A DNA stretch of 64,000 nt from an uncultured Clostridia bacterium (lineage in GTDB: Bacteria; Bacillota; Clostridia; Christensenellales; CAG-314). This document shows, piece after piece, positions 2,529-62,791 of this stretch. The stretch spans positions 1,108-65,107 of the forward strand of contig CANQGD010000004.1 of assembly GCA_947601445.1 (NCBI GenBank), read 5' to 3'. The position numbers were made by a program, and so were the translations under genes. Under the pieces are notes generated by a model that did not search any database, was not told the origin of the DNA, and saw only the letters and a list, made by a program, of their open reading frames with translations. Each line of letters starts with the position of its first letter. Position 1 is the first letter of the stretch.

Positions 2529-5180
2529 TCAGTAGCTTACCACCAATTCGTTATCTTCTTTTTTGAGAGATGAGGCATAAAAAGGTGCATAACACTGTTG
2601 CCCGTTCAGCGTCATACATTGCACGCTTGATTTGGCGAATGTGGTATCGATACGTTTTCCCGCGATATTAAGGGCAAATTGCTCCAAAACGTTTTCCGTC
2701 GTCACCTTGGGCTGAATCTGCAATTTCCCCGCGGAAATACTCAAACCGTAGAGATTTTCCAATTGCGACACGTAGTACCAGCTTTTGGGAATATTGTATT
2801 TATTGCAAAGTTCTTTCAGACGCGCCTTGGACGGAGTTAGCAGCGGCATCGCTCCTATTGCCTGTGCATATTCGTACAAATTTTCATCTTCGCATATCAG
2901 TTTTTTGGTTCTGTCGTATTCTACAAGACACCGTACCCTGTCGAAATTTGCAAGTTTAGACGCATTGAGCAAGGCCAGCGCTTTTATGCACAAATCGTTC
3001 CCCTCGAAATCGTCGGAAAACAATTCCGATGTTGCTTTTTTTATCCAATCCGAAGGCAATTCGCCTACAAGGTTCAGATAGTAAACGGTCGCAAGCGGTG
3101 CGCTCAATCTGTCAAAAAAGACGTGCGGAATACCTTTCGAATCGTAATAAAAGAATTTTGTTTCGTTTTTTTCATAAATTTTTTCCAAAAATTCTCTTAT
3201 AAATCTTGGATTGGTATAACATATTGCCGCAAGCGTAAGACTGTCCGGACGTTTAATGAAGTTTTTCAGACAGAAAACATTTTTTTCATTTACGTAATTG
3301 AGATACGTTGATACCAGACTTTCTCTGATAATCGGCGTTGCGGCGGGAGTTTGTTCGAGAGATTCCAACGTTATGCTTGGTTTGAGTTCGCGTCCGATTG
3401 TTATTGCAATACAGTTGCCGGTGCCCGTTCGATTGCTGAGCTTGTAGCGGAGTTTGTCCGACGAACATTCCAATTCGTTTACCGTATAACTTTCCACTTT
3501 GCCATTGCAATGCAATACGTAACGCCGCAATCCGTCCGAAACTGCAAATGTGTTGGTTGCCTCGTCGAAATCAACTTTCGAAGTTCGTTCCAACGGAAAG
3601 TAAAACAGCGTACGTTCGGGGCGATTGTATTCGATTTGGTAAATTTTCCCCTTTTCATGACGGATACACAGAACCGCGTCAGGCTTTTCATAAACCAACT
3701 TGTCCGCATCTAACTTAAATTGTTTTTCGTTTAATTTGGAAAGTATTCCGTGGCGCACAGCATATATTCCTTCTCCTCCCACTCCGAAAACAAACCCTTT
3801 CAACAGAGTGGCGGAGTTTCCGCCGTTGTCTACGAACGTCGCCACGTCGGCGTTCCCCAAACGATAACTGAAATTTATTTGTTCCGACATGATTTTCGGC
3901 GGCAATAATTTTGTGTGACCGTGTGAAGACAAAAACAAATTCATACCGTCCGAGTCGATACGAGAGCAGGCATTGTCCCACAAATAAGGACAGCGCGTTG
4001 TTCCGAATTGTTCCAATTCTGAAAGCGATTCTGCAAGTTGGGGCGTATTGTCGGCAAAAACGGAAACTATTTCAAATTGATAGCATTCGTTGCTTTCGAG
4101 CGTTATTTGAAACGTTCTGCTTTCTTTGCCGTCGCATTTGATAATTTCGGCGTCATGAACTATTGCGGTTGCGGCAAATAAATCCGACGCGATACATATT
4201 GCGTTGCCCATTTCGAAATATTCCGTTTTGACGTCCAAAGCTGTGTTTCGTACTTTGATTTCGACAGTGAATTTGCGCGATTTTTTCCCCGTATTGGTAA
4301 TGGTGCATCTGCGTATTTCGCTGTTTCCCGTTACAAAGTACTGCATTGCGACATTGACAGTCAGGCTGTATCCCGAAAATTCGGCAATTCGTTCTCCGAA
4401 TTTGCTTTCCATAAAAGTATCGAATACGTTTCTTCCGTTTGCATATACAAACAATTTTGTATCGATATGAGTTGATTTTGTCCCCAATCGAGAAGCCGAC
4501 ATTCCGAGACAGTCTACAACCGCCGCAATCTTCCCTCCCGCATAGGCAACTCTGAGATATTTTGTGTTTGGCAAAAATTCGTTTTTCAAAAGTGACGGTT
4601 TCAAAAAACGCCCCAAATATTTTTCCGCGTAAGTTTTTTTGCAAAGCAATTCGGCGGTGGCAGCGCAGTAATATTTTACTTTATACAACCTGATTGCTTC
4701 TTCGAGATACCGATCTTCGCGTTCTGTCAACTCCACATATTGACGGGTTTTGTCCAACAAGTTGCCGATAGCGTTATCGGACAATGCAAATTGAGTGCAT
4801 TTACAAAACAGCTCGGCAATTTGTTCTATACGCGTTGAGTCGGTATTTGAAGGGAAAATCAAATATTTTTTTTCGAAAACATTTCTCAGCCGAACATATT
4901 GCGCCCAAAATTCGTAGAAATATCCAAGTGCGGCTCTCTCGGCTACATTGTCGGCATGCGATAGAGCCAATTTGTTGAGACAAAACTCTATGTCCGTCGT
5001 TTCGACTGCACGAGAAAGCGGATAGTAGCTGTTTGCTATGTGTTCCAACTGCTCTAAATATTGTTTTTCGGTGGTTCCGGGTCCGATCAATCGGGAAAAC
5101 GGCTTTCTGTTGAAATTCCATCGGATGTTTTTGTAAATATATTTGGCAATCATATTATACCTCGCAAAAATTGTTGCCAT
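2529..5180 (-). CDS. Large uncharacterised protein (883 aa); C-terminal part weakly reminiscent of GH94/GH65/GH15-clan glycoside phosphorylase or hydrolase folds
   Basis: Long ORF 2529..5273. Start moved to ATG 5180 (GAGGA upstream) because codons 1-9 overlap a terminator. The layout is helical N-terminus, beta-rich middle, helical region, then a C-terminal LYGLSISAGKLQIQPKV beta-sandwich-like tail. Confidence 0.6.
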   Translation of the reverse strand: MATIFARYNMIAKYIYKNIRWNFNRKPFSRLIGPGTTEKQYLEQLEHIANSYYPLSRAVETTDIEFCLNKLALSHADNVAERAALGYFYEFWAQYVRLRNVFEKKYLIFPSNTDSTRIEQIAELFCKCTQFALSDNAIGNLLDKTRQYVELTEREDRYLEEAIRLYKVKYYCAATAELLCKKTYAEKYLGRFLKPSLLKNEFLPNTKYLRVAYAGGKIAAVVDCLGMSASRLGTKSTHIDTKLFVYANGRNVFDTFMESKFGERIAEFSGYSLTVNVAMQYFVTGNSEIRRCTITNTGKKSRKFTVEIKVRNTALDVKTEYFEMGNAICIASDLFAATAIVHDAEIIKCDGKESRTFQITLESNECYQFEIVSVFADNTPQLAESLSELEQFGTTRCPYLWDNACSRIDSDGMNLFLSSHGHTKLLPPKIMSEQINFSYRLGNADVATFVDNGGNSATLLKGFVFGVGGEGIYAVRHGILSKLNEKQFKLDADKLVYEKPDAVLCIRHEKGKIYQIEYNRPERTLFYFPLERTSKVDFDEATNTFAVSDGLRRYVLHCNGKVESYTVNELECSSDKLRYKLSNRTGTGNCIAITIGRELKPSITLESLEQTPAATPIIRESLVSTYLNYVNEKNVFCLKNFIKRPDSLTLAAICYTNPRFIREFLEKIYEKNETKFFYYDSKGIPHVFFDRLSAPLATVYYLNLVGELPSDWIKKATSELFSDDFEGNDLCIKALALLNASKLANFDRVRCLVEYDRTKKLICEDENLYEYAQAIGAMPLLTPSKARLKELCNKYNIPKSWYYVSQLENLYGLSISAGKLQIQPKVTTENVLEQFALNIAGKRIDTTFAKSSVQCMTLNGQQCYAPFYASSLKKEDNELVVSY

Positions 5181-5257
5181 TTTCCTCGTCTGATACACAG
5201 ACAAACAATTATTTGAAGGCGAATTTTGGCTTGAAGTGTCGTATTTGACGTTTTTAT

Positions 5258-5284
5258 AAAAAAGCCCCGTCATTTCAACGGGGC
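5258..5284 (-). terminator. Intrinsic terminator after the 441-aa membrane protein gene
   Basis: On the minus strand: GCCCCGT-TGAAATG-ACGGGGC followed by TTTTTT. Confidence 0.6.
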
Positions 5285-5308: not shown

Positions 5309-6631
5309 TTATTTGCGATTTCTTTTGGAAAATCTGTTGCAGTTTTCTTCAATCAGCTGCGCCTTGTTATTCAACAGATTGTCGAGATTTTCCACATATA
5401 CATTGAAGCGTCTCAGCGTCGCAAGTAAATTGGTGTCCAGGATAAAATGTAAATCGTTGCTCATATCCGACGGGTTCGGCAAAATTTCCGGACTTTGCAA
5501 TCTGCTTTTAATTACGATATAAAAACAATGATCTTTTTTGCGGTAATAGGGCAGCGCCTCTAAATTCAGTTGTTCGTAAGATATATCGCATAGATATTCC
5601 GTTTCGGGGGTTTCGCCGCCGGTATCGAAAACGTCTTGTACGTCGGGTACGGATTCATATGGTTCATCTGGAAATTCCAAGGACAAACTTATTCCGTTTT
5701 CCGTAAAGTCGCACAAATAGCCGTTGCCGCCGTCTGCATAGCGGTGCGGAAAATTTCTGCGTTCCTCTATCAACTCCCGTTGCAGTTGTTCTTTAACTTT
5801 TTTGCGGATTGCGACATGCGATAAGTCCGTAAAGTCAAACGGGTAATTAGTGGAATAAAATTCGCGCTCTTTTTTCGGTAGCCATACCCAATAAAGGATG
5901 GCGAAAATGACCGAGACGGAAATAAATACTGCGTTTACGCTTATATTCAAGACAATTCGAACGGCGTCTGATAGGTCCACAGATTCAAATACTATTCCGA
6001 ACAAAACCACGTAAATTACTACGATCAACCAGTAAGAAAAATTCAAAATAAAACTTTTTCTATAAGCCGGACAGCTTGGTTGGCGGAGCAAAGAGTATTC
6101 GCAGTAGGATACGTACAGATCCGTTTCCACCGACGGCGAAGTTTTCTTTTGCCAAACGTATAGTCCGCCGCTGGCTAAAATTAACGCCCCCATAATCGCT
6201 CCGCAAACGCCCATTACCGTAGTGTTATTCTTGCGCATGTTGCTTATGGTTACGTTATAATCTACGATTGTTGAATCATCTTGCTTTATGCCCAATATCC
6301 AGGGGTATGTGCTCTCAATTTGTCTCAAAGGCAGTAACAGAGTTACTTCTTTGTTCACCAAGTTGTCGGGCGTAGTCAGATAGTCGCGCACGGGATTAGC
6401 CATATACGTATCTTTATCGTCCAATACAATGACGAATTGTTCGTTTTTGTCCTCGCCGATAAACGTTATTGTCCCGTATGCTTCTCGCACGTTTCCGTTA
6501 AGGTTGCGGCTGTTGAGTACCCCGCAGAAAACCATTAATGCTGCGGCAAAAATTGCCATAGCAAAAAGCGCAAGCGACGACCATTTTAGACGTCTGTATT
6601 TTGGATTTTCCGTTGAAACTTTGTTGTACAT
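5309..6631 (-). CDS. Multi-pass membrane protein with acidic cytoplasmic C-terminal domain, unknown function
   Basis: ORF 5309..6718. Start placed at ATG 6631 with SD AGAGGA. It has about 5 TM segments and no motif I recognise. Confidence 0.6.
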   Translation of the reverse strand: MYNKVSTENPKYRRLKWSSLALFAMAIFAAALMVFCGVLNSRNLNGNVREAYGTITFIGEDKNEQFVIVLDDKDTYMANPVRDYLTTPDNLVNKEVTLLLPLRQIESTYPWILGIKQDDSTIVDYNVTISNMRKNNTTVMGVCGAIMGALILASGGLYVWQKKTSPSVETDLYVSYCEYSLLRQPSCPAYRKSFILNFSYWLIVVIYVVLFGIVFESVDLSDAVRIVLNISVNAVFISVSVIFAILYWVWLPKKEREFYSTNYPFDFTDLSHVAIRKKVKEQLQRELIEERRNFPHRYADGGNGYLCDFTENGISLSLEFPDEPYESVPDVQDVFDTGGETPETEYLCDISYEQLNLEALPYYRKKDHCFYIVIKSRLQSPEILPNPSDMSNDLHFILDTNLLATLRRFNVYVENLDNLLNNKAQLIEENCNRFSKRNRK

Positions 6632-7281
6632 AATTCCTCTATTCTTTGGAACGATACGTTTGTAAAATCTTTTATTGCCGGTACCGCATCTGTAAAATAT
6701 GTTTGTATGCCTATGCAATACATTCCTGCGTTAAGCGCTGCTTGTATACCGTTTGCGGAATCTTCGAACACAATGCATTGCGAAGGTTTGACGCCCGTTT
6801 TATGTGCCGTGAACAAAAAAATATCGGGTTGCGGCTTGTGAGGCAGACCCGCTGTCCCGTCCACAAAGACATCAAACAAGTCGGCTATTTTCAATCGTGT
6901 TGCCACCGATAGGCTGGACGTGCTTGCCGAAGCCACCGCGCATTTGATTCCAAGCGTTTTGATTTGTGCGATAAATTGCAAAACCCCGGGAATTATATCT
7001 TTGTCGGATACCCTCGCAAGCGCAGTCGCGGCACACTGTTGACGTATCGCGCTGTAATATTCTATGTCCTGTTCCGTTGCCGTTTTTCCCGATTTCGTCA
7101 ATAAATAGGGTATCACTTTTTGGCGACCCGCGCTTTTGAAGGGAGCATATTCTTCATAGGTAAAATCAACGCCGAGTATATTTGCGATACGTTGCCAGGC
7201 AAGGTGGTGGTATTTTTCACTGTCCACAACAACTCCGTCAAAGTCGAATATGCACGCCGCAATATTTATATTTGTATCCAT
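6586..7281 (-). CDS. HAD-superfamily hydrolase, beta-phosphoglucomutase family
   Basis: HAD motifs are present: FDFDGVVVDS (DxDG), ASAS, HKPQPDIF and FEDSANGIQAA. Confidence 0.8.
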   Translation of the reverse strand: MDTNINIAACIFDFDGVVVDSEKYHHLAWQRIANILGVDFTYEEYAPFKSAGRQKVIPYLLTKSGKTATEQDIEYYSAIRQQCAATALARVSDKDIIPGVLQFIAQIKTLGIKCAVASASTSSLSVATRLKIADLFDVFVDGTAGLPHKPQPDIFLFTAHKTGVKPSQCIVFEDSANGIQAALNAGMYCIGIQTYFTDAVPAIKDFTNVSFQRIEELCTTKFQRKIQNTDV

Positions 7282-10079: not shown

Positions 10080-10958
10080 ATGAAAATAAAAATCAGCGCA
10101 GACAGCACGGCAGACCTTTCCGAGGAAATGCTGCAACAGTACAATGTGGCGACAATGCCGCTGCATGTCAGTTTGGGAGAAAACGATTATCTCGACGGAG
10201 TAAATATCAAGCCCGAGGACATCTACAAGTACTACGCGGAAACAAAAAAACTTCCCAAATCCGGCGCGCGCAGCACCGAAGAATACAAGGAGTTTTTTGA
10301 AACATTGCTTAAAGAGGAAAATGACGCTGTGGTGCATTTTTGTATTTCAGCCGAAATGTCCGCATCATTTGCAAATGCGGAACTCGCAGCAAAAGCCTTT
10401 TCCAATGTGTTTGTCGTTGATAGTCGTCAGCTTTCCACCGGCATAGGATTGTTGGTATTGGACGCATGCGATATGGTTAAATGCGGACTGACCGCCCATC
10501 AAATTTACGATCGCGCAATGGCTCGCCGCGACGAATCCAAATCTTCTTTTATTGTAGATACTTTGGAATTTTTATACAAAGGCGGCAGATGTTCGGCATT
10601 GGCTTATCTGGGCGCAAATTTGTTGTCTATCAAACCCTGTTTGGAAGTGAAAAACGGTCTTATCGGCGTAGAGTCCAAACCTATGGGCAGATACCGTCGT
10701 TGTGTAGCCAAGTATTGCGAAAATATCCGTCAAAAAATTACCAATCCCGATCCGACGCGAGTATTTGTAACTCATACTAAAATGGACGAAGGTTTGGCGG
10801 AAGAAGTGATTGCAACCGTCAAGTCTTGGGGAATTTTCAACGAGATTCTGGAAACCACGGCGGGATGTACCGTAACTACCCACTGCGGTGCGAATACTAT
10901 CGGAATCTTGTATCTTAACGACGGACCGCAAACGACGCCGACTCCTTCTAAAGAGTAA
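10080..10958 (+). CDS. DegV-family fatty-acid-binding protein
   Basis: MKIKISADSTADL start is typical of DegV, and the length is typical at 292 aa. SD AGGAG lies upstream of ATG 10080. Confidence 0.85.
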   Translation: MKIKISADSTADLSEEMLQQYNVATMPLHVSLGENDYLDGVNIKPEDIYKYYAETKKLPKSGARSTEEYKEFFETLLKEENDAVVHFCISAEMSASFANAELAAKAFSNVFVVDSRQLSTGIGLLVLDACDMVKCGLTAHQIYDRAMARRDESKSSFIVDTLEFLYKGGRCSALAYLGANLLSIKPCLEVKNGLIGVESKPMGRYRRCVAKYCENIRQKITNPDPTRVFVTHTKMDEGLAEEVIATVKSWGIFNEILETTAGCTVTTHCGANTIGILYLNDGPQTTPTPSKE

Positions 10959-11017
10959 CAAATTGTATTTTTCCAAAGCTAAAAATTCGAATACATTTTG
11001 TTTGCAAAACAATGAAA

Positions 11018-11055
11018 ATAGTCTTCCGTCGCAATCGGAAGGCTATTTTGTGTTT
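11018..11055 (+). terminator. Intrinsic terminator after degV-family gene
   Basis: ATAGTCTTCCG-TCGCAAT-CGGAAGGCTAT followed by TTTGTGTTTT. Confidence 0.7.
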
Positions 11056-11517
11056 TAACTGGTTTTTCAATTGTACAATAATAATAAAGAGATAGTTCAT
11101 ATAAATTCTCCTCGCGTGTAATTGTTTTGTTCCAACTACCATTATACCAGAGATTTATATGAACTTCTTTTTTTCTTCAAGTGTTGCACTTGTCTGACTT
11201 TCGGGAATGGAAACATTTACGTAACGTCGGCTGATTCGGTAAATTTCAACAAACACGCAGTTAAATATCGGAAAAATATCGATTTGCAGAAAAAATCCAT
11301 TTAATTTAATCAAATATTTGCTTTTATGGAATGTAGACCGTTTTAATGATACGTCAGTTATCCACCCGTTTATCGAAATATTTCGAACGAAGTGTTTATA
11401 AAGACAAATATTTTACTTGAAAATAGTTGCAAACGTGTTTGTATATATTAGAGATATTTTGTAACGTGAAATAAAACCGTATAACATAGGTTTGTGCTTG
11501 CGCTCATATAATTTTAT

Positions 11518-26734: not shown

Positions 26735-27157
26735 TTATTTCCCGAATGTAATTTTGGGAATATCGATTTTGCGCGGATGACGTCTCGTGACTTCTTCGAT
26801 TATTTTCTTGATAGTTTCTTCTCGTGCGTCATCGTCCAGCTCAGACAGTTCTTCTATTTGCGCCATTACCTTTGGATTGCGAGTTACAAACACATGATCC
26901 AGCTCGCACTCCGATTTGATTTTTGAAATAAGCGTGTTTACAAAGGTATCATATTGACTTTTTGCGGAAAATTTTTCCGTTTTGACGGCAACCACGGCAA
27001 CTCGTTTGTAAATTAAGCATTTGGCGTCCGTTACATTGTCGTTTTCCATTGCCATTTCACATATTTTCTTTTCGCAATCCGTTTCGGCAATAGCAATAGA
27101 CGTTACGCTCAACGCCAACAAAAGTATTGTCAATACAACCGTTACAATTTTTTTCAT
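26735..27157 (-). CDS. YhcN/YlaJ-like sporulation protein (secreted)
   Basis: Signal peptide MKKIVTVVLTILLLALSV, a VAVVAVK core and an acidic C-terminus as in the YhcN/YlaJ family. SD is GGAGG. No canonical lipobox is seen. Confidence 0.45.
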   Translation of the reverse strand: MKKIVTVVLTILLLALSVTSIAIAETDCEKKICEMAMENDNVTDAKCLIYKRVAVVAVKTEKFSAKSQYDTFVNTLISKIKSECELDHVFVTRNPKVMAQIEELSELDDDAREETIKKIIEEVTRRHPRKIDIPKITFGK

Positions 27158-27296
27158 ATAGCCTCCTTTGCGAAATGTCGTCAGACACTGCATTTAGCTT
27201 TGTTTTGGCAATAGTATCTGCATTTTCTCGCGTATTATTACACACTCGTATTTTTTTCGTCAATTGTACCGCTATACAATTGTGCAGAGGTGAAAT

Positions 27297-38484: not shown

Positions 38485-38760
38485 ATGAGCAATTCTTTTT
38501 TAAATTGCGTCGCCGATATTTGCGGCGTGGAATTGGCAACGCTTTTGACCGAGTGTAAATATACTGTGTTCGGAAATCATACTGCGGTAATAGAAGGTCA
38601 CAGAGGCATTGCGGAATATTCGTCCAATGGCATATCCTTTGCCGTAAACAAATCGTTTTTGCATATACGGGGTGCAAATTTACGGATAAAATGTTTGGAA
38701 AAAAATTTTGCCGTGGTAGTCGGTGAAATTGATTCCGTTGAGGTGCGCCGTGAAAAATAG
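38485..38760 (+). CDS. yqfC: Sporulation protein YqfC (YabP/YqfC family)
   Basis: 91 aa. VIEGHRGIAEYSSNGISF...LRIKCLEKNFAVVVGEIDSVEV matches the family pattern. It sits in the conserved position upstream of yqfD. Confidence 0.75.
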   Translation: MSNSFLNCVADICGVELATLLTECKYTVFGNHTAVIEGHRGIAEYSSNGISFAVNKSFLHIRGANLRIKCLEKNFAVVVGEIDSVEVRREK

Positions 38761-39832
38761 TTGCAAAATCAGCTTCGAGGGATTGAATGTCAACAGACTG
38801 ATGACGGTATTGGGTAAAAAGGGAATTACAATTTACGGCGTTATCAAACAGGGTAAAAAATATATTTTGGAAGTTCCTGCAAGTCGATCTCGGCAGACTA
38901 TTGCATTATTAAAAGAAAAGTGCTATAATATACTCGGTATAGAATTTTTCGGCATATCCAAGGTCGTAAAGTTTTTGAAAAAACACTTTGTTTTGCCGAT
39001 ATTTTGCCTGTTTGCCGTGATTGTAATTGCGGTTTCGTCGCAATTATGCTTTCGTATAGAGGTCAACGGTGATTTTGAACAGCAGATCGTATGCGACGCT
39101 TTGCAAGATTTGGGCGTAAAAGTCGGCGCCGATCTGCACAAATTAAATATAAACCGTCTGCAAAATGCTTTGGCAAACAAATTGGACGCCACGTATGCGG
39201 TTGTCAGGCGATCCGGCAGCGTTTTATACGTCAACGTTATTGCTAAAAAGGAAATAGACCCGCCGATAAAGCTCGATGTAAAGCGAAACATTGTGGCGAC
39301 GCGTTCGGGTACGGTAGTCGGCGTTTTGTGCGAACAGGGTACTCCGTTAGTCAAAATCGGCGATTCGGTAAAAGCGGGCGACGTACTGATAGAGGGTAAA
39401 AGACTTTTCAACGACGGTACGAGCGAAGACGTATATGCCCTCGGACGGGTGACGCTTGAAATTACATCAAGCGGTTTTGCCCCGTTTGACGGAACAAAAA
39501 CGGTTACGGTTGAAACCGGAAAAACCTTTAATACAACGGGAGTGGTGTTGTTTGGTAAGGAATATGCAAAGACTTGTCCTTTTGCACAATACAACGTCGA
39601 AACCGTTGTTACAAGGCTTTTCCCGTTGAATTTGGAAATTCGCAAGGAGTGCTATCGTGAAACGGTAACGCAGCGCGTCCCCGCAGCTATCGAAGAATGT
39701 ATCGAGGAGTTGAAGTCGGAAGCATACAGGTCGGCTTTTGCCATTGCGGATTTTGCGGTCAAGGATATTAAATACGACATTCAATCGGATGGAGTACACG
39801 TAACTCTGTACGGAGAGGTATGTCTGGAATAA
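38748..39832 (+). CDS. yqfD: Sporulation protein YqfD
   Basis: GTG 38748 follows GAGGTG. The N-terminus VKNSCKISFEGLNVNRLM parallels the B. subtilis YqfD start. It has a single central TM and conserved synteny. Confidence 0.75.
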
Positions 39833-44589: not shown

Positions 44590-46362
44590 ATGATTTTCGG
44601 CAAATATATAAATAGATTTTATCTTAAATATGCGTTGCTGATACTGTGCGGATTGATTGCGCTTGCTGCCGTGGATTACGCGCAAACGCTCATTCCCGAA
44701 ATGTACCGTATGGTAATAGACGGCGCCGACAAAGGCGTTGTCGGAATCGGCAACGAAATTTTTACATTCGATTTGCAGTTTGTTTGGGATAAAATTTGTG
44801 TTCCGATGTTTTTTATCATTGTGTTTATCGTTTTCGGCAGATTTCTGTGGCGTATCTGTCTTTTCGGGAGCGGAATACGCGTCGAGCGAGATTTGCGCAA
44901 ACAAATGTTCGCTCATTGCGAGCAGCTGTCGTGCAAATTTTATTCGGGCGAAAAAATCGGTAACTTGATGTCTCTGTTTACAAACGATTTGGAAACGGTT
45001 CAGGATTGTTTCGGAAACGGCATTATGATGACGTTCGACGCGCTGTTTTTAGGCGGCTTATCGCTGTACAAAATGTTTTATATGGATGGGTTGATGACAT
45101 TGCTTGCGCTTATTCCTATGGCATTGATGGTGGCAGTAAGTTTGTTGGTGGGCAAATATATGACGCTTAAATGGCGCACCCGACAGCAAGCATTTTCCGA
45201 CCTGTCGGATTTTTCACAGGAAAGTTTTTCGGGCATAGCGGTAATAAAGGCGTTTGTAAAAGAATTTAAGGAGTTGTTGGCATTCAGGTGGTTAAACAAA
45301 AAGAATGAAGACGCCAATGTGGCTTACACCCGAATAAGCACTCTGCTGAATGTATGCGTTACATTGTTTGTGGAGTCGGTAATATGCATCATTTTGGGGT
45401 ACGGTTCCTTTTTGGTATATAAAGAAGATTTTACCGGCGGACAGTTAATGGAGTTTATCGGTTATTTCAATGCTGTAATATGGCCGATAATGGCTGTTAC
45501 CGAACTTATAGAAATGCACTCTCGCGGTAAAGCGTCTTTGCGCAGAGTGTCCGACCTGTTGAATGAAAAATCCGATGTGGTGGATCAGGAAGAAGCTTTG
45601 CCCGTACAACACGTTTGCGGGGAAATAGAATTCCGCCATGTAACGTTTCGTTATCCCGGCGCTGATTACGATGCTTTATCCGATGTCAGTTTTCATATCG
45701 ATGCGGGAGAAAACGTGGGCATTATAGGCAAAACAGGAAGCGGTAAGACTACCGTCGCAGACCTTATTTTACGCTGTTACAATGTGGCAGACGGCACATT
45801 GTTTGTGGACGGAAAAGATGTCAATTGCATTACGGTAAAAAGTTTGCGCGATTTTTGCACATATGTGCCTCAGGACAACTTTTTGTTTTCCGATACCATA
45901 TACAATAACATAGCTTTTGCGGTGGATGACGCAACCGAAACGGATGTCGAACAATCTGCGAAACTATCCGATATAGACGAGAATATCGGCAAATTTACGC
46001 ATCACTATCAAACCATGATGGGCGAGCGCGGCGTAACGGTATCCGGTGGGCAAAAACAGCGTATTTCCATTGCCCGTGCATTGATGAAGAATGCTTCGGT
46101 TTTGATTTTGGACGATTCTGTTTCAGCTGTGGACACGGATACCGAAAAAACAATTTTAAGCAATTTGCGTACTGCGCGCAACGGTAAAACCACAATATTT
46201 ATCGCACACCGTATTTCGACGGTAAGAGGATTGGACAAAATAATTCTTTTGGACAACGGTAAAGTGGTTGATGTCGGAAATCACGACGAACTTATGCAAA
46301 GATGCGATGCTTACAGTACTATGGTGAGGTTGCAGGCTTTGGAAGAAGAGGAGGGCATTTGA
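44590..46362 (+). CDS. ABC exporter, fused permease/ATPase (heterodimer subunit 1)
   Basis: Six-TM ABC_membrane domain, Walker A GKTGSGKTT, signature VSGGQKQR, Walker B ILILDD. Confidence 0.85.
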   Translation: MIFGKYINRFYLKYALLILCGLIALAAVDYAQTLIPEMYRMVIDGADKGVVGIGNEIFTFDLQFVWDKICVPMFFIIVFIVFGRFLWRICLFGSGIRVERDLRKQMFAHCEQLSCKFYSGEKIGNLMSLFTNDLETVQDCFGNGIMMTFDALFLGGLSLYKMFYMDGLMTLLALIPMALMVAVSLLVGKYMTLKWRTRQQAFSDLSDFSQESFSGIAVIKAFVKEFKELLAFRWLNKKNEDANVAYTRISTLLNVCVTLFVESVICIILGYGSFLVYKEDFTGGQLMEFIGYFNAVIWPIMAVTELIEMHSRGKASLRRVSDLLNEKSDVVDQEEALPVQHVCGEIEFRHVTFRYPGADYDALSDVSFHIDAGENVGIIGKTGSGKTTVADLILRCYNVADGTLFVDGKDVNCITVKSLRDFCTYVPQDNFLFSDTIYNNIAFAVDDATETDVEQSAKLSDIDENIGKFTHHYQTMMGERGVTVSGGQKQRISIARALMKNASVLILDDSVSAVDTDTEKTILSNLRTARNGKTTIFIAHRISTVRGLDKIILLDNGKVVDVGNHDELMQRCDAYSTMVRLQALEEEEGI

Positions 46363-46363
46363 T

Positions 46364-48256
46364 ATGAAAGAATACCTTCCGTTGTTTATCGTGGGCGCAA
46401 TCATAGGAGTCTTTGCGACGGCGCTTATAATCGCATATGCGTTGGTTAAAGACAAAAAGGAATCTATGGGTTTCGAGCGTAACATGAAGGACGGCGAATT
46501 GCTCAAACGTTTGCTGTATTACGCCAAACCGTATTGGTTTAATTTCGTAATTGTAGGTTTGGTGATGTTGCTCTCCATTTCTTACAATATATTGTCTCCG
46601 ATAATTATTTCGAGAATAGAAAAAATAGTGCAAAATGAGGCGGGTTTTGCATATAGAGAAGTGTTGTGGCGCGTAATCGTCTATGCCGCAATTCTTATCG
46701 GATCGCTTGTCGGCACGTATGTTCAAGCCATCGTATTGCAAAAAACGGGACAAAAAATTATTTCCCGTTTGCGCGAGGACACATTCACTCATATCGAAAG
46801 TTTGTCTCACTCGCAGTTGTCTCATTTACCCGTCGGCAAGTTGGTGACACGCGTAACAAACGACACAAATGCCATTTCCATGATGTTCACGGGTATGCTT
46901 GTCAATCTCGTAAAGAATATTTTTGTGATATTCGGCGTGTTGATCGCAATGTTGTTTATCAATTATATGTTAACGCTGATGGTACTGTGTTTTGTTCCGT
47001 TTATCGTGTTGTTTACGATAATTTTCCGTAAATTTTCACGTCGCGCTTATCGGAAAGTCAAAAACGGCACCACAGACATCAATACCTATCTATCCGAACA
47101 TCTTTCCGGCATGAAGATTATTCAGGTTTTCAATCGCGAAGAACGGAAAATGCGGGAATTCGATGTGAAAAACGATACGCTGTATCGTGCACAGCGCGGA
47201 CAGATATTCGTATTCGGTATTTTCCGCCCGGTTGTATATATGCTGTATATATCCTCTGTATTGTGCCTGTTCTTTTTGGGTGCCAAGGGCGCGTTGGATA
47301 ACCGTGAAATATTGGGACAAATTGTTGACGGCGCTACAATTGTTGCATTCTATATGTTTATTTCGCGCTTTTTTAACCCGATTCAGAATCTGGCAGAACA
47401 ATTTCACCGTTTGCAGTCTGCTTTTGCTTCTGCGGAAAAGATTTTTACCATTTTGGATATTCAGCCCGAAGTGGTGGACGAACCCGACGCAATCGAATTG
47501 GAAAGTATACGCGGCGAAATCGAATTTAAGGATGTGTGGTTTGCCTATAATGAAGGCGAATGGGTTTTGAAAGGCGTGAGTTTTCACGTCGAAGCCAAGA
47601 ATACGGTGGCATTTGTAGGCGCTACGGGCAGCGGGAAAACTACGATTTTGTCATTGCTTTGTCGCAATTACGATATACAGCAAGGGGAAATTTTATTGGA
47701 CGGAATCAATATACGTCATATAAAGATTTCCTCCCTTCGCAAGCACTTCGGTCAGATGTTGCAAGATGTTTTCTTGTTTGCGGGAACAATTCGCGGTAAC
47801 ATTGTTTTGCGGGAGGAATTTAGCGACGAAGAAGTAGAGCAAGCGTGCAAGTATGTCAATGCCGACAAATTTATCGGCAAATTGGCAAACGGTTTGGACG
47901 AAGAGGTTCGTGAACGAGGCAACAATTTCTCCGCGGGACAACGTCAGCTGCTAAGCTTTGCAAGAACCATTATTCATCGTCCGGAAGTTATGATTTTGGA
48001 TGAGGCAACCGCCAATATCGATACCGAAACGGAGTTGCTTATTCAGGACAGCCTGGAAAAAATGATGAACGTCGGAACGATGTTGATAGTGGCGCACCGT
48101 CTGTCTACCATTCAGCACGCCGACAATATCATAGTACTATCCGACGGCAAAATTATCGAGCAGGGCAATCATCACGAATTGCTGCACAACAAGGGACGTT
48201 ATTACGAACTGTATACACTTCAATTTAACAAAGAACAATTGAGAAAAGGTGCATAA
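46364..48256 (+). CDS. ABC exporter, fused permease/ATPase (heterodimer subunit 2)
   Basis: Six-TM domain, GATGSGKTT, FSAGQRQL, MILDEAT. It starts 1 nt after the partner gene. Confidence 0.85.
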   Translation: MKEYLPLFIVGAIIGVFATALIIAYALVKDKKESMGFERNMKDGELLKRLLYYAKPYWFNFVIVGLVMLLSISYNILSPIIISRIEKIVQNEAGFAYREVLWRVIVYAAILIGSLVGTYVQAIVLQKTGQKIISRLREDTFTHIESLSHSQLSHLPVGKLVTRVTNDTNAISMMFTGMLVNLVKNIFVIFGVLIAMLFINYMLTLMVLCFVPFIVLFTIIFRKFSRRAYRKVKNGTTDINTYLSEHLSGMKIIQVFNREERKMREFDVKNDTLYRAQRGQIFVFGIFRPVVYMLYISSVLCLFFLGAKGALDNREILGQIVDGATIVAFYMFISRFFNPIQNLAEQFHRLQSAFASAEKIFTILDIQPEVVDEPDAIELESIRGEIEFKDVWFAYNEGEWVLKGVSFHVEAKNTVAFVGATGSGKTTILSLLCRNYDIQQGEILLDGINIRHIKISSLRKHFGQMLQDVFLFAGTIRGNIVLREEFSDEEVEQACKYVNADKFIGKLANGLDEEVRERGNNFSAGQRQLLSFARTIIHRPEVMILDEATANIDTETELLIQDSLEKMMNVGTMLIVAHRLSTIQHADNIIVLSDGKIIEQGNHHELLHNKGRYYELYTLQFNKEQLRKGA

Positions 48257-56667: not shown

Positions 56668-57492
56668 ATGGGTTGTTGGTGGAACAATAATAGCTGCTGT
56701 CACAATGAAAGCAGTACAAATACGGTAATAATAGACAGAGGATTGCGTGGACCGCGCGGATTTACGGGACCTCAGGGCATAATGGGTCCTCCGGGCATCG
56801 GAATAACCGGACCTACCGGACCGCAAGGTATTCAAGGCATCCCCGGCGTAACGGGAGCGACGGGACCGCAGGGTTTGATCGGTCCGACAGGTGCTACCGG
56901 CCCTCAGGGTTTGCAAGGTATCCCGGGTGTAACGGGAGCAACCGGTCCGCAGGGTTTAATCGGACCCACCGGACCTGTCGGAGCAACAGGTCCCCAAGGC
57001 TTGATTGGACCCACCGGTGCGGAAGGAGCAATCGGACCGGCAGGTCCCGCAACAAACGGCTTGGCGGCATACGGCGGATTGTACAGCACTGCTGCGGACA
57101 CAATTTCCGTTCCCGCAACGCCCACGGTGGTGGCGGTTCCTTTGGCGACCGCGATGCCTGTGCTCAATGCGACAACGGGAGCAAACGGCGTTACGGTTAC
57201 CCAAGCGGGGGATTACGAAATTCAATACAAACTTGCGGGTGAAACGGATGTAGCGTCAACCATAACGTTGAGTGTAGACGTGAATGGTGTGATGTCTCCC
57301 TCATCGCCCGTTACACGCGATTTCGTCGCGGGCACGGAAAACGAGTTGGGCGGGAGCGAAATCGTCACACTGCCGGCAAACAGCACGGTTACGCTTCAAG
57401 TGATGGGCAGCACGGCGGCGACATTCACGCCCGCAGACAACGTAAATGCTTATCTTACCGTAAAAAAGCTGAATTCGGGAACAGTAGTGTAG
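56668..57492 (+). CDS. Collagen-like triple-helix repeat protein with BclA/C1q-like C-terminal domain (candidate exosporium or spore-surface protein)
   Basis: Cys-rich N-terminus [11 protein letters not shown], about 34 G-X-Y triplets (GPQ/GPT/GAT), and a ~145-aa beta-rich C-terminal domain. SD is AAGGAG. Confidence 0.85.
56740..57051 (+). repeat. G-X-Y coding repeat tract with internal longer duplications
   Basis: 9-nt periodicity. The block [18 protein letters not shown] occurs twice at the protein and DNA level. Confidence 0.85.
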
Positions 57493-59344: not shown

Positions 59345-59728
59345 ATGAAAGAATACTATTTGGATCGACTTCATTGGATATTTCGATACACAAGTAAAAA
59401 CTTTTTTTACATATTATGCAAAACGCTCTGCATTGTCATAGGTTTGCCGATTTATGCGGTTTCCTTCTGTGTGGAAATGATTTTTACTTTTATCAATATG
59501 CTGTTCAGTTGGATACCGGTACTTAATGTTGTGGTAATGTTGTTGTGCAAAGCAATCGTATGGCTGTTTGGAAGTACTTTTTATATTTGTATACTTACCG
59601 ATATTCGCCGATATAAATCTTCACATCGCGTTTCGGATGATATTACGTTTTCCGAAGAGATTGAGGATGAAAATATTGCGTCAAGCGGCAATGAAGAAGC
59701 CGAAATTACGCAGGACGAATCGGAATAA
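59345..59728 (+). CDS. Small membrane protein with acidic C-terminal tail (127 aa)
   Basis: Three hydrophobic segments, then an EEIEDENIASSGNEEAEITQDESE tail. Weak SD. Confidence 0.5.
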   Translation: MKEYYLDRLHWIFRYTSKNFFYILCKTLCIVIGLPIYAVSFCVEMIFTFINMLFSWIPVLNVVVMLLCKAIVWLFGSTFYICILTDIRRYKSSHRVSDDITFSEEIEDENIASSGNEEAEITQDESE

Positions 59729-59778
59729 TGGGCGAGCCGCCGCGGTTCGCTCTTTTTAATTGCATAAAATGTCTTTTT

Positions 59779-59785
59779 TTCGACA
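59779..59785. promoter_or_regulatory. Consensus Spo0A box upstream of the spo0A-like gene
   Basis: TTCGACA is the complement of the TGTCGAA 0A-box consensus. It lies about 90 nt upstream of the start codon. Confidence 0.35.
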
Positions 59786-59875
59786 ATTTCTACTCTAAAT
59801 TCCTTTTTTCTTACTAAAAATCCAGTGCTAAATAGTGGTACAATAAAGGCACAAAGATAAAAGGAGATGTTGTTT

Positions 59876-60604
59876 GTGATTTCGATAGGTTTGATAGGGC
59901 AGGACGGACTCAAAGAAAAATTGCAGGAAAACGAAGAATTTAACGTTGTATTCGATGTTGAGGGCAAGGATGCACGGGCGAATTTGGACAGACAATTGCC
60001 TGATGTGGTAATCACGGAGCTTGTAATGAGCGGCGAAGACGGCTACGCTTTATTGGAAAAATACCATGACGCCAAATTTATTGTCGCCTCCGAGCTGAAA
60101 AGCGAAGTTTTTGTCATAAAAGCCATGGAATTGGGCGCAAAGTATTATCTTGTAAAACCGTTGGAATACGGCGTGTTGGAACAACGGATAATAAATGTTT
60201 ACGAAGGCGCGCGATTGGGAGGTAAAGTTGTGCGTCAAAAAAGCGTTTCGGAAAAGACTTTGGACGAACGTATCAGCAGTATTTTTGTCAGCGTCGGTAT
60301 TCCCGCACACATAAAGGGATACCAATTTCTGCGCGAGGGCATCAAGCTCGCAGTTGACAATCCGCCTATCATAAACGCCATTACAAAAAGTCTGTATCCG
60401 TCTATTGCCAAACGGTTCAACACAACGTCGAGCAAGGTGGAACGCGCAATTAGACATGCGATAGAAGTGGCATGGAATAGGGGAAAAATCGAAAATATCA
60501 ACAATATATTCGGAGTTAAAGTGTACAATTCGTCGGAAAAACCCACAAACGGAGAGTTTATCGCGCTGCTTGCCGACAAAATGCTGTTGGAGTGTGCCTA
60601 TTAG
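59876..60604 (+). CDS. spo0A: Spo0A-like sporulation transcription factor with degenerate receiver domain
   Basis: The C-terminal GIPAHIKGYQFLREGI...ITKSLYPSIAKRFNTTSSKVERAIRHAIEVAWNRG...KPTNGEFIALLADK is the Spo0A_C signature. The receiver has ITELVM instead of ILDIIM. GTG 59876 is favoured (AAAGGAG spacing); ATG 59867 is also possible. Confidence 0.8.
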   Translation: MISIGLIGQDGLKEKLQENEEFNVVFDVEGKDARANLDRQLPDVVITELVMSGEDGYALLEKYHDAKFIVASELKSEVFVIKAMELGAKYYLVKPLEYGVLEQRIINVYEGARLGGKVVRQKSVSEKTLDERISSIFVSVGIPAHIKGYQFLREGIKLAVDNPPIINAITKSLYPSIAKRFNTTSSKVERAIRHAIEVAWNRGKIENINNIFGVKVYNSSEKPTNGEFIALLADKMLLECAY

Positions 60605-60737
60605 CAAAAATGAAAATTTTGTAAAATTGTTAGCGAAATGGGTTGCCTTTCTTTGTCTGATATGTTATAATCAATTTGCGAGTTTATTGAGATACAATTG
60701 TTAAGTCGCACAGCTAATTCAGACGGAGAAATGCCCT

Positions 60738-61322
60738 ATGCAGTACTTAAAGAAGGAAATCAGAGAGAGAATTTTGGCGGCGGCGGTGGAAGAATTTAAG
60801 GAAGAGGGCTATTCCGATGCGTCCATTCGCAACATCGCCAACAATGCGGAAATTTCACTCGGAAATGTTTACAGATATTACACTAACAAAGAGTCGCTTT
60901 ATTTTGCCGTGATCAATCCTTTTATGGCAAGTATAAAGCAATTTGTAGATAACGATTTTACTTTTAACGAAAGTTCCATGAAAGAAATCTCCGAGAAGGT
61001 AATTGCTTTCATAATGAAATACCATGATGAATTGCTTGTAATACGTAAAGGAAACACGATACACTACGATACCTTTGTAAATTATATCATTGAACTCATT
61101 GCGTTGAAAATTAAAGAAATGGTGCAAAGCGTTTTCCCCGAAATTGACAAAAAAATCGAAAATCCCGATTTTTACAGCGCCGTTGCGGAGGGATTTTTGA
61201 CAAGTTTCTTTAAAATATTGAACAATAATGACTCCAAAGAAATTTTGGAACGCAAAGCGCGTGAGTTGATTACCTTCTATTTCGGACATATGAAGGACAG
61301 ATTCAGACATTTTGACGCGTAA
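60738..61322 (+). CDS. TetR/AcrR-family transcriptional regulator
   Basis: N-terminal HTH ILAAAVEEFKEEGYSDASIRNIANNAEISLGNVYRYY. Confidence 0.85.
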   Translation: MQYLKKEIRERILAAAVEEFKEEGYSDASIRNIANNAEISLGNVYRYYTNKESLYFAVINPFMASIKQFVDNDFTFNESSMKEISEKVIAFIMKYHDELLVIRKGNTIHYDTFVNYIIELIALKIKEMVQSVFPEIDKKIENPDFYSAVAEGFLTSFFKILNNNDSKEILERKARELITFYFGHMKDRFRHFDA

Positions 61323-61994: not shown

Positions 61995-62642
61995 ATGCCG
62001 GTAAACAATTTAGATGGCAACAATTGCAGTGAAAAAATATGTATTCAAGGTAAAAAGGTATTTGACGCTTGCGTCAAACAAACCACTTTACAACAAATCA
62101 CGGTAAGTATTTCGGATGTGAATCCCGGTTCCCCCGCCGTACCGCTTCGTTTTGTAAGCGCCAAGAGTACCACAACAAAAGGTATAATAGAAAATCTTGT
62201 CGTAGAACGTCTTACGGAACGTCCCAAATACGGTAGGGTACAAGCTGACGTAGTGGTACCCGTCGAAGTTACGTACATAGATAGCAACAATGAGGAAGGC
62301 AGCGGCATGGGCAGTGTAACCGTTCCGGTAGACGTTGTGATGTATTTGCCTGAGCCTTCGATAATACCGTACACTATCGAAGCAAGCGTTTCGGCGGTTA
62401 GTCCCGAAGGTCAATACAGTCAAACCCAGGTTATAGATGGCGTTACGTACTACATTTTCGTAATCAACTGCTGCGTAACGGCTATTCTCAAAGTCACAAT
62501 GGATGTGGAGCTTATTGTTCCAAGCTACGGCTATGCTATCATACCGCCCTGTCAGGAATACACCGAGGAGGTTTGTTCGGGATACTTCGAGCTACCCTTG
62601 TTCCCGGGCGGGCGCACTCCAAACGGAGGGGGCAACAACTGA
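61995..62642 (+). CDS. Cys-containing beta-rich protein (215 aa), unknown family; possible spore-coat or surface protein
   Basis: Strong SD AGGAGG. No signal peptide. Cys pattern is C-X4-C-X9-C at the N-terminus, then CC and two more Cys later. CATACAATA lies upstream. Confidence 0.6.
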   Translation: MPVNNLDGNNCSEKICIQGKKVFDACVKQTTLQQITVSISDVNPGSPAVPLRFVSAKSTTTKGIIENLVVERLTERPKYGRVQADVVVPVEVTYIDSNNEEGSGMGSVTVPVDVVMYLPEPSIIPYTIEASVSAVSPEGQYSQTQVIDGVTYYIFVINCCVTAILKVTMDVELIVPSYGYAIIPPCQEYTEEVCSGYFELPLFPGGRTPNGGGNN

Positions 62643-62791
62643 AAAATTCGACGCGAACTTGCTATCCGGTCGAAAAGGAGATTGGGTTATTCCGTCTCCT
62701 TTTTTATTTTCCGCAAAGTCAAAGCCCATAGCGTATAGTAACACTTGTGATAAAACTTTCATAGTTTGAAATGTAAATTGGAGAGTTTGTA

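Follow-up and report, generated by a model that had tools for sequence, protein, structure and literature searches.

A 64,000-nucleotide stretch of contig CANQGD010000004.1 from an uncultured Clostridia bacterium of the rabbit gut (here called the window) was analyzed around its gene for the sporulation regulator Spo0A. This gene lies between a small membrane protein gene and a gene for a TetR-family regulator, and its product has glutamate in place of aspartate at the phospho-acceptor position of the receiver domain. The open reading frame (ORF) (positions 59867 to 60604, forward strand) has three candidate start codons, ATG at 59867, TTG at 59870, and GTG at 59876. The GTG sits 9 nucleotides (nt) 3' of the ribosome binding site (RBS) AAAGGAG, and the ATG abuts that same site. 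Nearly all homologues are 242 amino acids (aa) long with the N terminus MI(S/T/K)IGLIGQ, and the aligned start in relatives is GTG or ATG. Because of the RBS spacing, the length and N terminus of homologues, and the aligned starts of relatives, spo0A was assigned to positions 59876 to 60604, and residues are numbered from the GTG (Table 1).

By family scoring, the protein is a bona fide Spo0A. Pfam profiles matched both halves, with Spo0A_C (PF08769) at 8.8e-40 over residues 136 to 238 of the 245-aa form (profile positions 1 to 103 of 104) and Response_reg at 2.8e-11 (44 bits against a cutoff of 30.2). The NCBIfam equivalog for the sporulation transcription factor Spo0A (TIGR02875, spore_0_A) scored 211.8 bits against a cutoff of 200, barely above it because the receiver scores poorly. 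In phmmer the C-terminal half matched 1lq1 at 7.5e-39, with 55 to 57% identity to solved Spo0A DNA-binding domains. An AlphaFold2 (AF2) model of the protein reached a mean predicted local distance difference test score (pLDDT) of 86.8, and Foldseek aligned its DNA-binding half to 1lq1 and 1fc3 with template modeling (TM) scores of 0.85 to 0.93 and 56% identity. About 60 columns of the Spo0A_C domain were invariant over 72 homologues. The DNA-binding half is thus essentially canonical in sequence and should recognize 0A boxes. The original prediction, made from the letters of the sequence alone, had read this gene as a Spo0A with the full Spo0A_C domain and had proposed alignment to the two Pfam profiles as a check; both families were indeed found.

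The receiver domain departed from this canonical picture at its catalytic residues. In a HMMER alignment to the Geobacillus stearothermophilus Spo0A receiver (PDB 1dz3), PDVVITELVMSGEDG stood opposite PDILLLDIIMPHLDG, and therefore the acceptor position is Glu48 and the register is unshifted. MAFFT alignment to canonical Spo0A placed Gly8 and Gln9 at the Mg2+-binding Asp-Asp pair and opened a 5-residue gap in helix α1 directly after that pair. The AF2 model agreed, with strand β1 (residues 2 to 7) followed by Gly-Gln, α1 covering only residues 12 to 17, β3 (residues 44 to 47) followed by Glu48, β4 (residues 68 to 72) ending in Ser72, β5 (residues 88 to 93) followed by Lys94, and a disordered linker at residues 113 to 126. 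The (βα)5 fold itself was modeled with a pLDDT of >90, and Foldseek matched it to phosphorylated Spo0A-N (1qmp) with TM scores of 0.80 to 0.83 (root mean square deviation, 2.0). A register shift that would bring Asp43 or Asp55 to the acceptor position was ruled out by the alignment to 1dz3 and by the AF2 strand boundaries. Asp10, considered as a stand-in for the lost acidic pair, was rejected, the position being P, A, S, Q, E, H, K, or T in relatives.

By alignment and model, then, three requirements of His-Asp phosphotransfer are missing from this receiver: the two Mg2+ ligands, an Asp at the acceptor position, and roughly half of the α1 docking helix. Work on Spo0F-Spo0B and on kinase-regulator specificity identifies α1 as the docking surface (PMC6136694). 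Because of the Gly-Gln pair, the Glu at the acceptor position, and the deletion of about half of α1, the domain is predicted to be unable to carry out His-Asp phosphotransfer. It is a profile-recognized receiver without acceptor Asp in which the Asp-Asp pair is also gone, and as such it belongs with the pseudo-receivers (PsRs), or aspartate-less receivers (ALRs). The reading of the domain in the original prediction (Glu encoded by GAG at the acceptor position, loss of the acidic pair, retention of the conserved Ser/Thr and Lys) was upheld in each respect by HMMER, MAFFT, or AF2, and no Asp reached the acceptor position by the register shift named there as a possible refutation.

We considered whether the Glu codon could stem from faulty sequencing or assembly, which was the other possible refutation named in advance, and judge the chance of this to be negligible. 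The stretch is present in rabbit gut metagenomes, and no variant of the GAG codon was seen in the contigs that cover it, which derive from one RNA run and from three DNA runs, each of a different study. Moreover, when the 120 best database homologues were surveyed for Asp versus Glu, as had been suggested at the outset, Glu was found in 85 and Asp in 34 of the 119 that aligned at the acceptor column.

A contig scan for relatives was made, from which the 80 best related loci were taken. The nearest relatives were uncultured metagenome-assembled genomes (MAGs) from rabbit, chicken, ruminant, and human gut, labeled Clostridia, Christensenellaceae, Candidatus Fimimonas, or "Corallococcus sp."; among these 80 loci the best relative was 92% identical to the query Spo0A and none was 100% identical. 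A point of naming concerns L013, L014, L022, and L023: Candidatus Fimimonas (taxid 2840648) stands under Myxococcaceae in the NCBI taxonomy. This placement, like the label "Corallococcus sp." given to some MAGs of the clade, looks like a taxonomy error, since the gene content (spo0A and Clostridia-type synteny) is that of Clostridia.

A tree of 189 Spo0A sequences was computed (IQ-TREE quick search, LG+G4, trait columns removed), with Shimodaira-Hasegawa-like approximate likelihood ratio test (SH-aLRT) values as the only support measure. The query fell in a clade of 82 sequences, all with Glu (SH-aLRT, 99). This lies within an enclosing clade of 116 sequences (SH-aLRT, 99) in which the Asp-Asp pair is absent from every member and replaced by GQ, CQ, EQ, SQ, AQ, or GN, and the α1 deletion was common to all members of this clade displayed in the N-terminal alignment. 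The acceptor was Glu in 94 of the 116 and Asp in 22, with nothing else found. Over the whole tree, acceptor identity changed at least 11 times, at least 5 of these changes being forced by well-supported branches. On this tree Glu was not the founding event, because loss of the pair covers the whole 116-sequence clade and Asp and Glu interchange within it. As read from the tree, the Mg2+ ligands and half of α1 were lost first, with repeated Asp/Glu interchange afterwards; the phospho-incompetent state of the receiver is, on the same reading, ancient and fixed across the clade. The feature under selection at the acceptor is, judging from this column, an acidic side chain and not a phosphorylation site.

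Loss of the acceptor Asp was also seen outside the 116-sequence clade. A clade of 9 sequences (L037 and relatives; support, 100) had the Asp-Asp pair, Ser, and Lys but Glu at the acceptor, L076 and L036 had Glu, and L034 had Ser. These loci, together with proteins P0101 to P0119, P0124, and P0128, represent independent loss of the acceptor Asp in other Christensenellales-like Spo0A lineages, with single cases of Ser, Gln, and Asn. A broader search of 1.84 billion representatives clustered at 50% identity (E ≤ 1e-30) matched 746 proteins. Among the best 150 of these, 116 were alignable at the acceptor column, where 92 had Asp and 24 did not (10 Glu, 5 Gly, 4 Asn, 3 Ser, 1 Gln, and 1 Tyr). In other representatives Spo0A_C follows an N-terminal region that can no longer be aligned as a receiver, or occurs in tandem; P0121, P0122, and P0126 are proteins of 430 to 450 aa that lack a receiver and have three or four Spo0A_C domains in a row.

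The ratio of nonsynonymous to synonymous substitution rates (dN/dS; NG86 method, query and 25 close loci) was about 0.10 in the receiver and about 0.03 in the DNA-binding domain, values that are rough because dS was saturated (about 1.7 to 1.9) between most pairs. At equal divergence of the DNA-binding domain (p of about 0.1), median receiver divergence was 0.32 for pseudo-receivers versus 0.61 for canonical receivers. By these measures the pseudo-receiver is under purifying selection and is being maintained rather than decaying.

Because orf127 ends in an intrinsic terminator (Table 1), spo0A should have a transcription unit separate from that of this upstream gene. Counted over the window, TTCGACA was not enriched (10 copies versus 12.25 expected). 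The exact box was found at the homologous position in 20 of 29 upstream regions of the clade, and a one-mismatch form was found in 6 more; in relatives it lay at about −86 to −149 from the start codon, mostly at −93 to −97, in flanking DNA that had diverged. For the 0A box, it is thus the phylogenetic footprint and not the window count that is informative. L015 has six 0A-box-like repeats (TTCGACA, ATCGACA, and four ACGACA) at a spacing of 10 to 11 bp, which run from about −115 to −60 upstream of spo0A (locus start, 3636) and reach the −10 element. A promoter scan gave no sigma-70 −35/−10 pair before spo0A, where no −35 was recognizable, and inspection by eye gave no sigma-H-like GAAT −10 there. 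The predicted promoter is an extended −10 element lying in a GTGnTAnAAT block that is conserved in the upstream alignment. Extended −10 promoters without a −35 are typically activator dependent, and such an element together with the conserved 0A box would therefore fit positive autoregulation, in line with what had been proposed from the presence of the upstream box in the query and now strengthened by its conserved position.

The gene order orf127-spo0A-tetR-Cys-rich gene-metallophosphoesterase gene was conserved in the closer relatives of the query. A TetR-family gene adjoined spo0A in 27 of the 28 loci without an Asp-Asp pair (a contig end cuts two), was still present at 31 to 34% identity in L027 and L028, and was divergent from spo0A where spo0A is flipped (L016 to L018 and L020). 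TetR_N was not among the recurrent families in the 98 nearest spo0A neighbors at the 52 other loci, where the recurrent neighbors were zinc-ribbon/acidic-tail proteins, HTH_3, and SipL. Outside the query clade, as in L036 (10861-11433) and L037 (10776-11324), the gene that follows spo0A codes for a double zinc-ribbon protein whose long tail is polyacidic; in the query clade its place is taken by tetR.

RefZ (YttP), a sporulation protein of Bacillus subtilis, belongs to the same TetR family and shares a weak N-terminal and core resemblance with this neighbor. The NCBIfam RefZ profile (NF037937) was its second-best match, at 41.8 bits against a cutoff of 180, and with a score so far below the cutoff the neighbor is no RefZ member by that test. 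PDB entry 6mj1 aligned to TetR residues 5 to 139 (135 residues; E = 4.3e-5). The TetR neighbor could be an input sensor or, equally, a downstream RefZ-type factor of early sporulation. No palindrome was shared between the spo0A and tetR promoters, and the 5' leader of the query tetR folded no better than shuffled sequences (z = +1.68). In L002, L003, L005, L007, and L012, the tetR 5' leader between the −10 element and the start codon contains, in the same spot, a perfect or near-perfect palindrome or hairpin of 16 to 30 nt that differs from species to species.

The Cys-rich gene (61995-62642) encodes a 215-aa protein without a family match, which is 94 to 98% identical in the nearest relatives (versus 90 to 92% for Spo0A) and may be a candidate spore coat or exosporium component. 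In L026, a MAG from yak cecum, a stand-alone pseudo-receiver of about 100 aa (FNQ...VIDVFMDGIDG...FIVATNLK...YLEKP) is encoded directly 3' of spo0A (10889-11209) and appears to have arisen by duplication of only the receiver half. The window also carries genes linked to sporulation, namely, yqfD, a YhcN/YlaJ spore lipoprotein gene, the BclA-like collagen gene, and DUF421/YetF with DUF4363 (Table 1). Elsewhere in the window, two adjacent large ORFs on the reverse strand (2529-5273 and 5309-6718; 914 and 469 aa) had no Pfam match.

Table 1. Coordinates of spo0A, its parts and control elements, and other features in the 64,000-nt window
Feature	Position	Strand	Remarks
spo0A coding sequence	59876-60604	+	GTG start, 242 aa, TAG stop
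RBS AAAGGAG	59860-59866	+	Read in the sequence; kept in relatives
Pseudo-receiver domain, residues 1-112	59876-60211	+	(βα)5 fold retained; α1 cut to residues 12-17
Gly8-Gln9 replacing the Mg2+-binding Asp-Asp pair after β1	59897-59902	+	MAFFT versus canonical Spo0A
Glu48 at the phospho-acceptor position (Asp56 in B. subtilis numbering)	60017-60019	+	Codon GAG; placed by HMMER, MAFFT, and AF2
Ser72, conserved Ser/Thr position, end of β4	60089-60091	+	MAFFT, AF2
Lys94, conserved Lys, end of β5	60155-60157	+	MAFFT, AF2
Flexible interdomain linker, residues 113-130	60212-60265	+	AF2 pLDDT <50 for residues 113-126
Spo0A_C DNA-binding/transactivation domain	60266-60601	+	Pfam 8.8e-40; phmmer; Foldseek
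Recognition helix SKVERAIRHAIEVAW	60431-60475	+	Within the Spo0A_C domain
0A box TTCGACA (complement of TGTCGAA)	59779-59785	+	Exact match, about 97 nt 5' of the start codon
Extended −10 TGgTACAAT, likely spo0A promoter (predicted)	59836-59844	+	In conserved GTGnTAnAAT block of upstream alignment
orf127, predicted membrane protein of 127 aa with acidic tail	59345-59728	+	No family match; conserved upstream neighbor of spo0A
Intrinsic terminator of orf127	59730-59752	+	10 pairs, 7 GC, then T-run
TetR-family regulator gene (tetR)	60738-61322	+	Pfam TetR_N; own promoter 60643-60671
Collagen-repeat BclA_C exosporium-type gene	56668-57492
yqfD	38723-39832		In yqfD-phoH-yqfF-ybeY-era-recO cluster
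YhcN/YlaJ spore lipoprotein gene	26735-27193
DUF421/YetF with DUF4363	1149-2275

Expression was assessed in the RNA run X4 ("whole organism metagenome"), which contains a strain about 99% identical to the query and whose contigs match gene boundaries. The BclA-like exosporium-type gene was covered by a contig at 56685 to 57497 (depth, 12.7, the highest RNA contig depth within the 20 kb examined), spo0A by one at 59925 to 60631 (depth, 6 to 6.7), tetR by one at 60605 to 61315 (depth, 4.7), and the Cys-rich gene by one at 62062 to 62685 (depth, 4.1). The BclA-like protein appears to evolve fast, since it is 41 to 58% identical between close relatives. In X4 the ABC exporter genes (44668-48002) and most of the P-type ATPase gene had no coverage, whereas the DNA run covers them, and the intergenic region upstream of spo0A was likewise uncovered in X4. 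The tetR contig starts at 60605, 5' of the tetR promoter, and no terminator follows spo0A, which suggests read-through and cotranscription of the two genes. These data suggest that spo0A and late spore surface genes are expressed in vivo.

As the probable explanation of these observations, we propose that the protein is the lineage's own Spo0A, a regulator of sporulation entry that acts independently of phosphorylation and is set by its own expression or by a partner. The carboxylate (Glu or Asp), Ser72, and Lys94 would hold the receiver in a fixed, probably active-like, and dimerization-competent conformation; the receiver would now be a fixed structural or dimerization module, and Spo0A activity would be set by the amount of protein made instead of by phosphorylation. 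The conserved 0A box and extended −10 element would give positive autoregulation, and additional control might come from a partner or ligand, with the conserved, probably cotranscribed TetR-family neighbor as one candidate. The original prediction had gone one step further in taking Glu as a phosphomimetic change that gives constitutive activity. Independence from phosphorylation is retained here as the favored inference; activity driven by Glu is not, given published experience with Asp-to-Glu exchanges (PMC4395418) and given that Glu was not the founding event.

That the gene is an extra, specialized paralogue, with a canonical phosphorylatable Spo0A elsewhere in the genome running sporulation entry, is very unlikely in our judgment. 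Duplications of parts of Spo0A do occur among relatives (the stand-alone pseudo-receiver of L026), as do proteins with multiple Spo0A_C domains among the representatives. The protein nevertheless scores above the TIGR02875 equivalog cutoff and is nested among the Spo0A proteins of related Christensenellales-like MAGs with no separate paralogue branch, synteny is conserved over the clade, and the 80 best loci contain one locus per MAG (weaker paralogues would not be listed there). No second Spo0A_C was found within the window or in any of these 80 related loci, and with a conserved locus at which it occurs once, the gene looks like the lineage's own orthologue rather than an additional copy. 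Quite unlikely, too, is that the lineage no longer sporulates and has kept Spo0A as a regulator of stationary phase or colonization whose receiver decayed after loss of its input. Christensenella-type isolates are described as non-spore-forming, and this spo0A is not located beside spoIVB, unlike that of many Firmicutes. However, sporulation-specific genes (yqfD, YhcN/YlaJ, and the BclA-like exosporium gene) are intact within these 64 kb, RNA coverage of spo0A was accompanied by coverage of the BclA-like gene and of the Cys-rich candidate coat gene, and with a dN/dS of about 0.1 the receiver does not appear to be decaying.

Covalent switching might also persist in another form, by phosphotransfer at Asp43 or at Glu54/Asp55 in the GEDG loop, by a Ser/Thr/Tyr kinase, or by acylation. 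Ser72, Lys94, and a strongly conserved SGEDG loop are kept, Asp is found at the acceptor position in part of the clade, and plant pseudo-response regulators (PRRs) are phosphorylated away from the acceptor (PMC12632262). Against this, the known catalytic and docking needs would, by receiver chemistry, have been removed with both Mg2+ ligands and half of α1, Asp43 and Asp55 are ordinary receiver framework residues that lie off the active-site position in the model, and no kinase gene, histidine kinase genes included, was found within the window. We regard such switching as unlikely.

Several points weigh against the explanation that we prefer, a lineage-specific Spo0A working without phosphorylation. 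Phosphorylation independence and an active-like conformation are suggested by analogy with residue chemistry in other receivers. By itself, an Asp-to-Glu exchange often fails to confer constitutive activity, with Spo0A among the examples cited (PMC4395418). The members of the clade that keep Asp (EQ-D, CQ-D, and GQ-D) might retain weak phosphotransfer. The work cited for Spo0A as the Asp-to-Glu example is reportedly that of Green et al. (1991). The organism is uncultured, and spore formation is predicted from its genes. The copy number evidence covers the 64-kb window and the 80 related loci, the dN/dS values are rough owing to saturated synonymous sites, and the RNA evidence consists of assembled contigs of one run from a strain about 99% identical to the query.

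A wider proposal would be that a whole family-level clade of endospore-forming gut Clostridia enters sporulation without His-Asp phosphotransfer, by means of a locked pseudo-receiver, 0A-box autoregulation, and a small-molecule input through TetR. We consider this unlikely in its full form. Exactly in this clade, the TetR gene has come to adjoin spo0A and has remained there; it is apparently cotranscribed with spo0A and, in some members, divergent from it.

Phosphorylation of Spo0A is the point at which starvation and density signals converge, and to our knowledge it is generally taken as the event that sets off endospore formation in all spore formers, through a phosphorelay in Bacilli and through orphan kinases in Clostridia. 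If our explanation is true, abundant and uncultured spore formers of the gut have rewired this trigger. Loss of the acceptor Asp may not be rare, as it was seen in 24 of the 116 nearest alignable 50%-identity clusters, and predictions of sporulation that count the presence of spo0A alone miss the difference at the acceptor. The sequences would also provide a natural series for receiver function without chemistry, leading from the pair with Asp, by way of either the pair with Glu or no pair with Asp, to no pair with Glu.

Canonical Spo0A, as in B. subtilis, G. stearothermophilus, and Clostridioides difficile, needs phosphorylation, through a phosphorelay or orphan kinases, to become active. The protein described here has the same two-domain architecture, with a Spo0A_C domain that shares 56% identity with 1lq1 and has almost the same recognition helix, the same receiver fold (TM scores of 0.80 to 0.83 to 1qmp), the conserved Ser/Thr and Lys, and a 0A box in its own promoter region. 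It differs from canonical Spo0A in the acceptor Glu, in Gly-Gln at the place of Asp-Asp, and in the 5-residue deletion in α1, and its locus differs in that spoIVB is not adjacent and the flanks are formed by a small membrane protein gene and a TetR-family gene.

In retaining a Pfam-recognized fold without the catalytic residues, the receiver resembles the ALRs and PsRs, such as ChxR of Chlamydia, HP1043/HsrA of Helicobacter, BldM/WhiI and GlnR of actinomycetes, plant PRRs, and fungal Rim15. Several members of this group are DNA-binding dimers that act independently of phosphorylation. Unlike in those known cases, the output here is the master switch of sporulation. Among ALRs, Glu is the residue that most often stands in for the acceptor Asp (26%), and the activity of ChxR survives replacement of its Glu (PMC4395418), which makes Glu as a phosphomimetic unsafe as a general rule. 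Reviews of ALRs and pseudo-receivers (PMC4395418 and PMC12632262) list no Spo0A, and no description of an Asp-less Spo0A was found in the literature searched, including a study of Spo0 pathway evolution (PMC6136694) and two surveys of sporulation in MAGs. Both Spo0A and pseudo-receiver regulators are thus known, and it is their combination at the master switch of sporulation that is new to the literature searched. Phosphorylation-independent mutants have reportedly been obtained in the laboratory, among them B. subtilis sad67, a deletion in the Spo0A receiver, and CheY D13K. They indicate that changes in a receiver, including one at the second position of the acidic pocket, can give activity without phosphorylation, as is proposed for the protein described here; unlike those engineered or selected forms, the state found in this clade is natural and, as far as the tree can tell, ancient and fixed.

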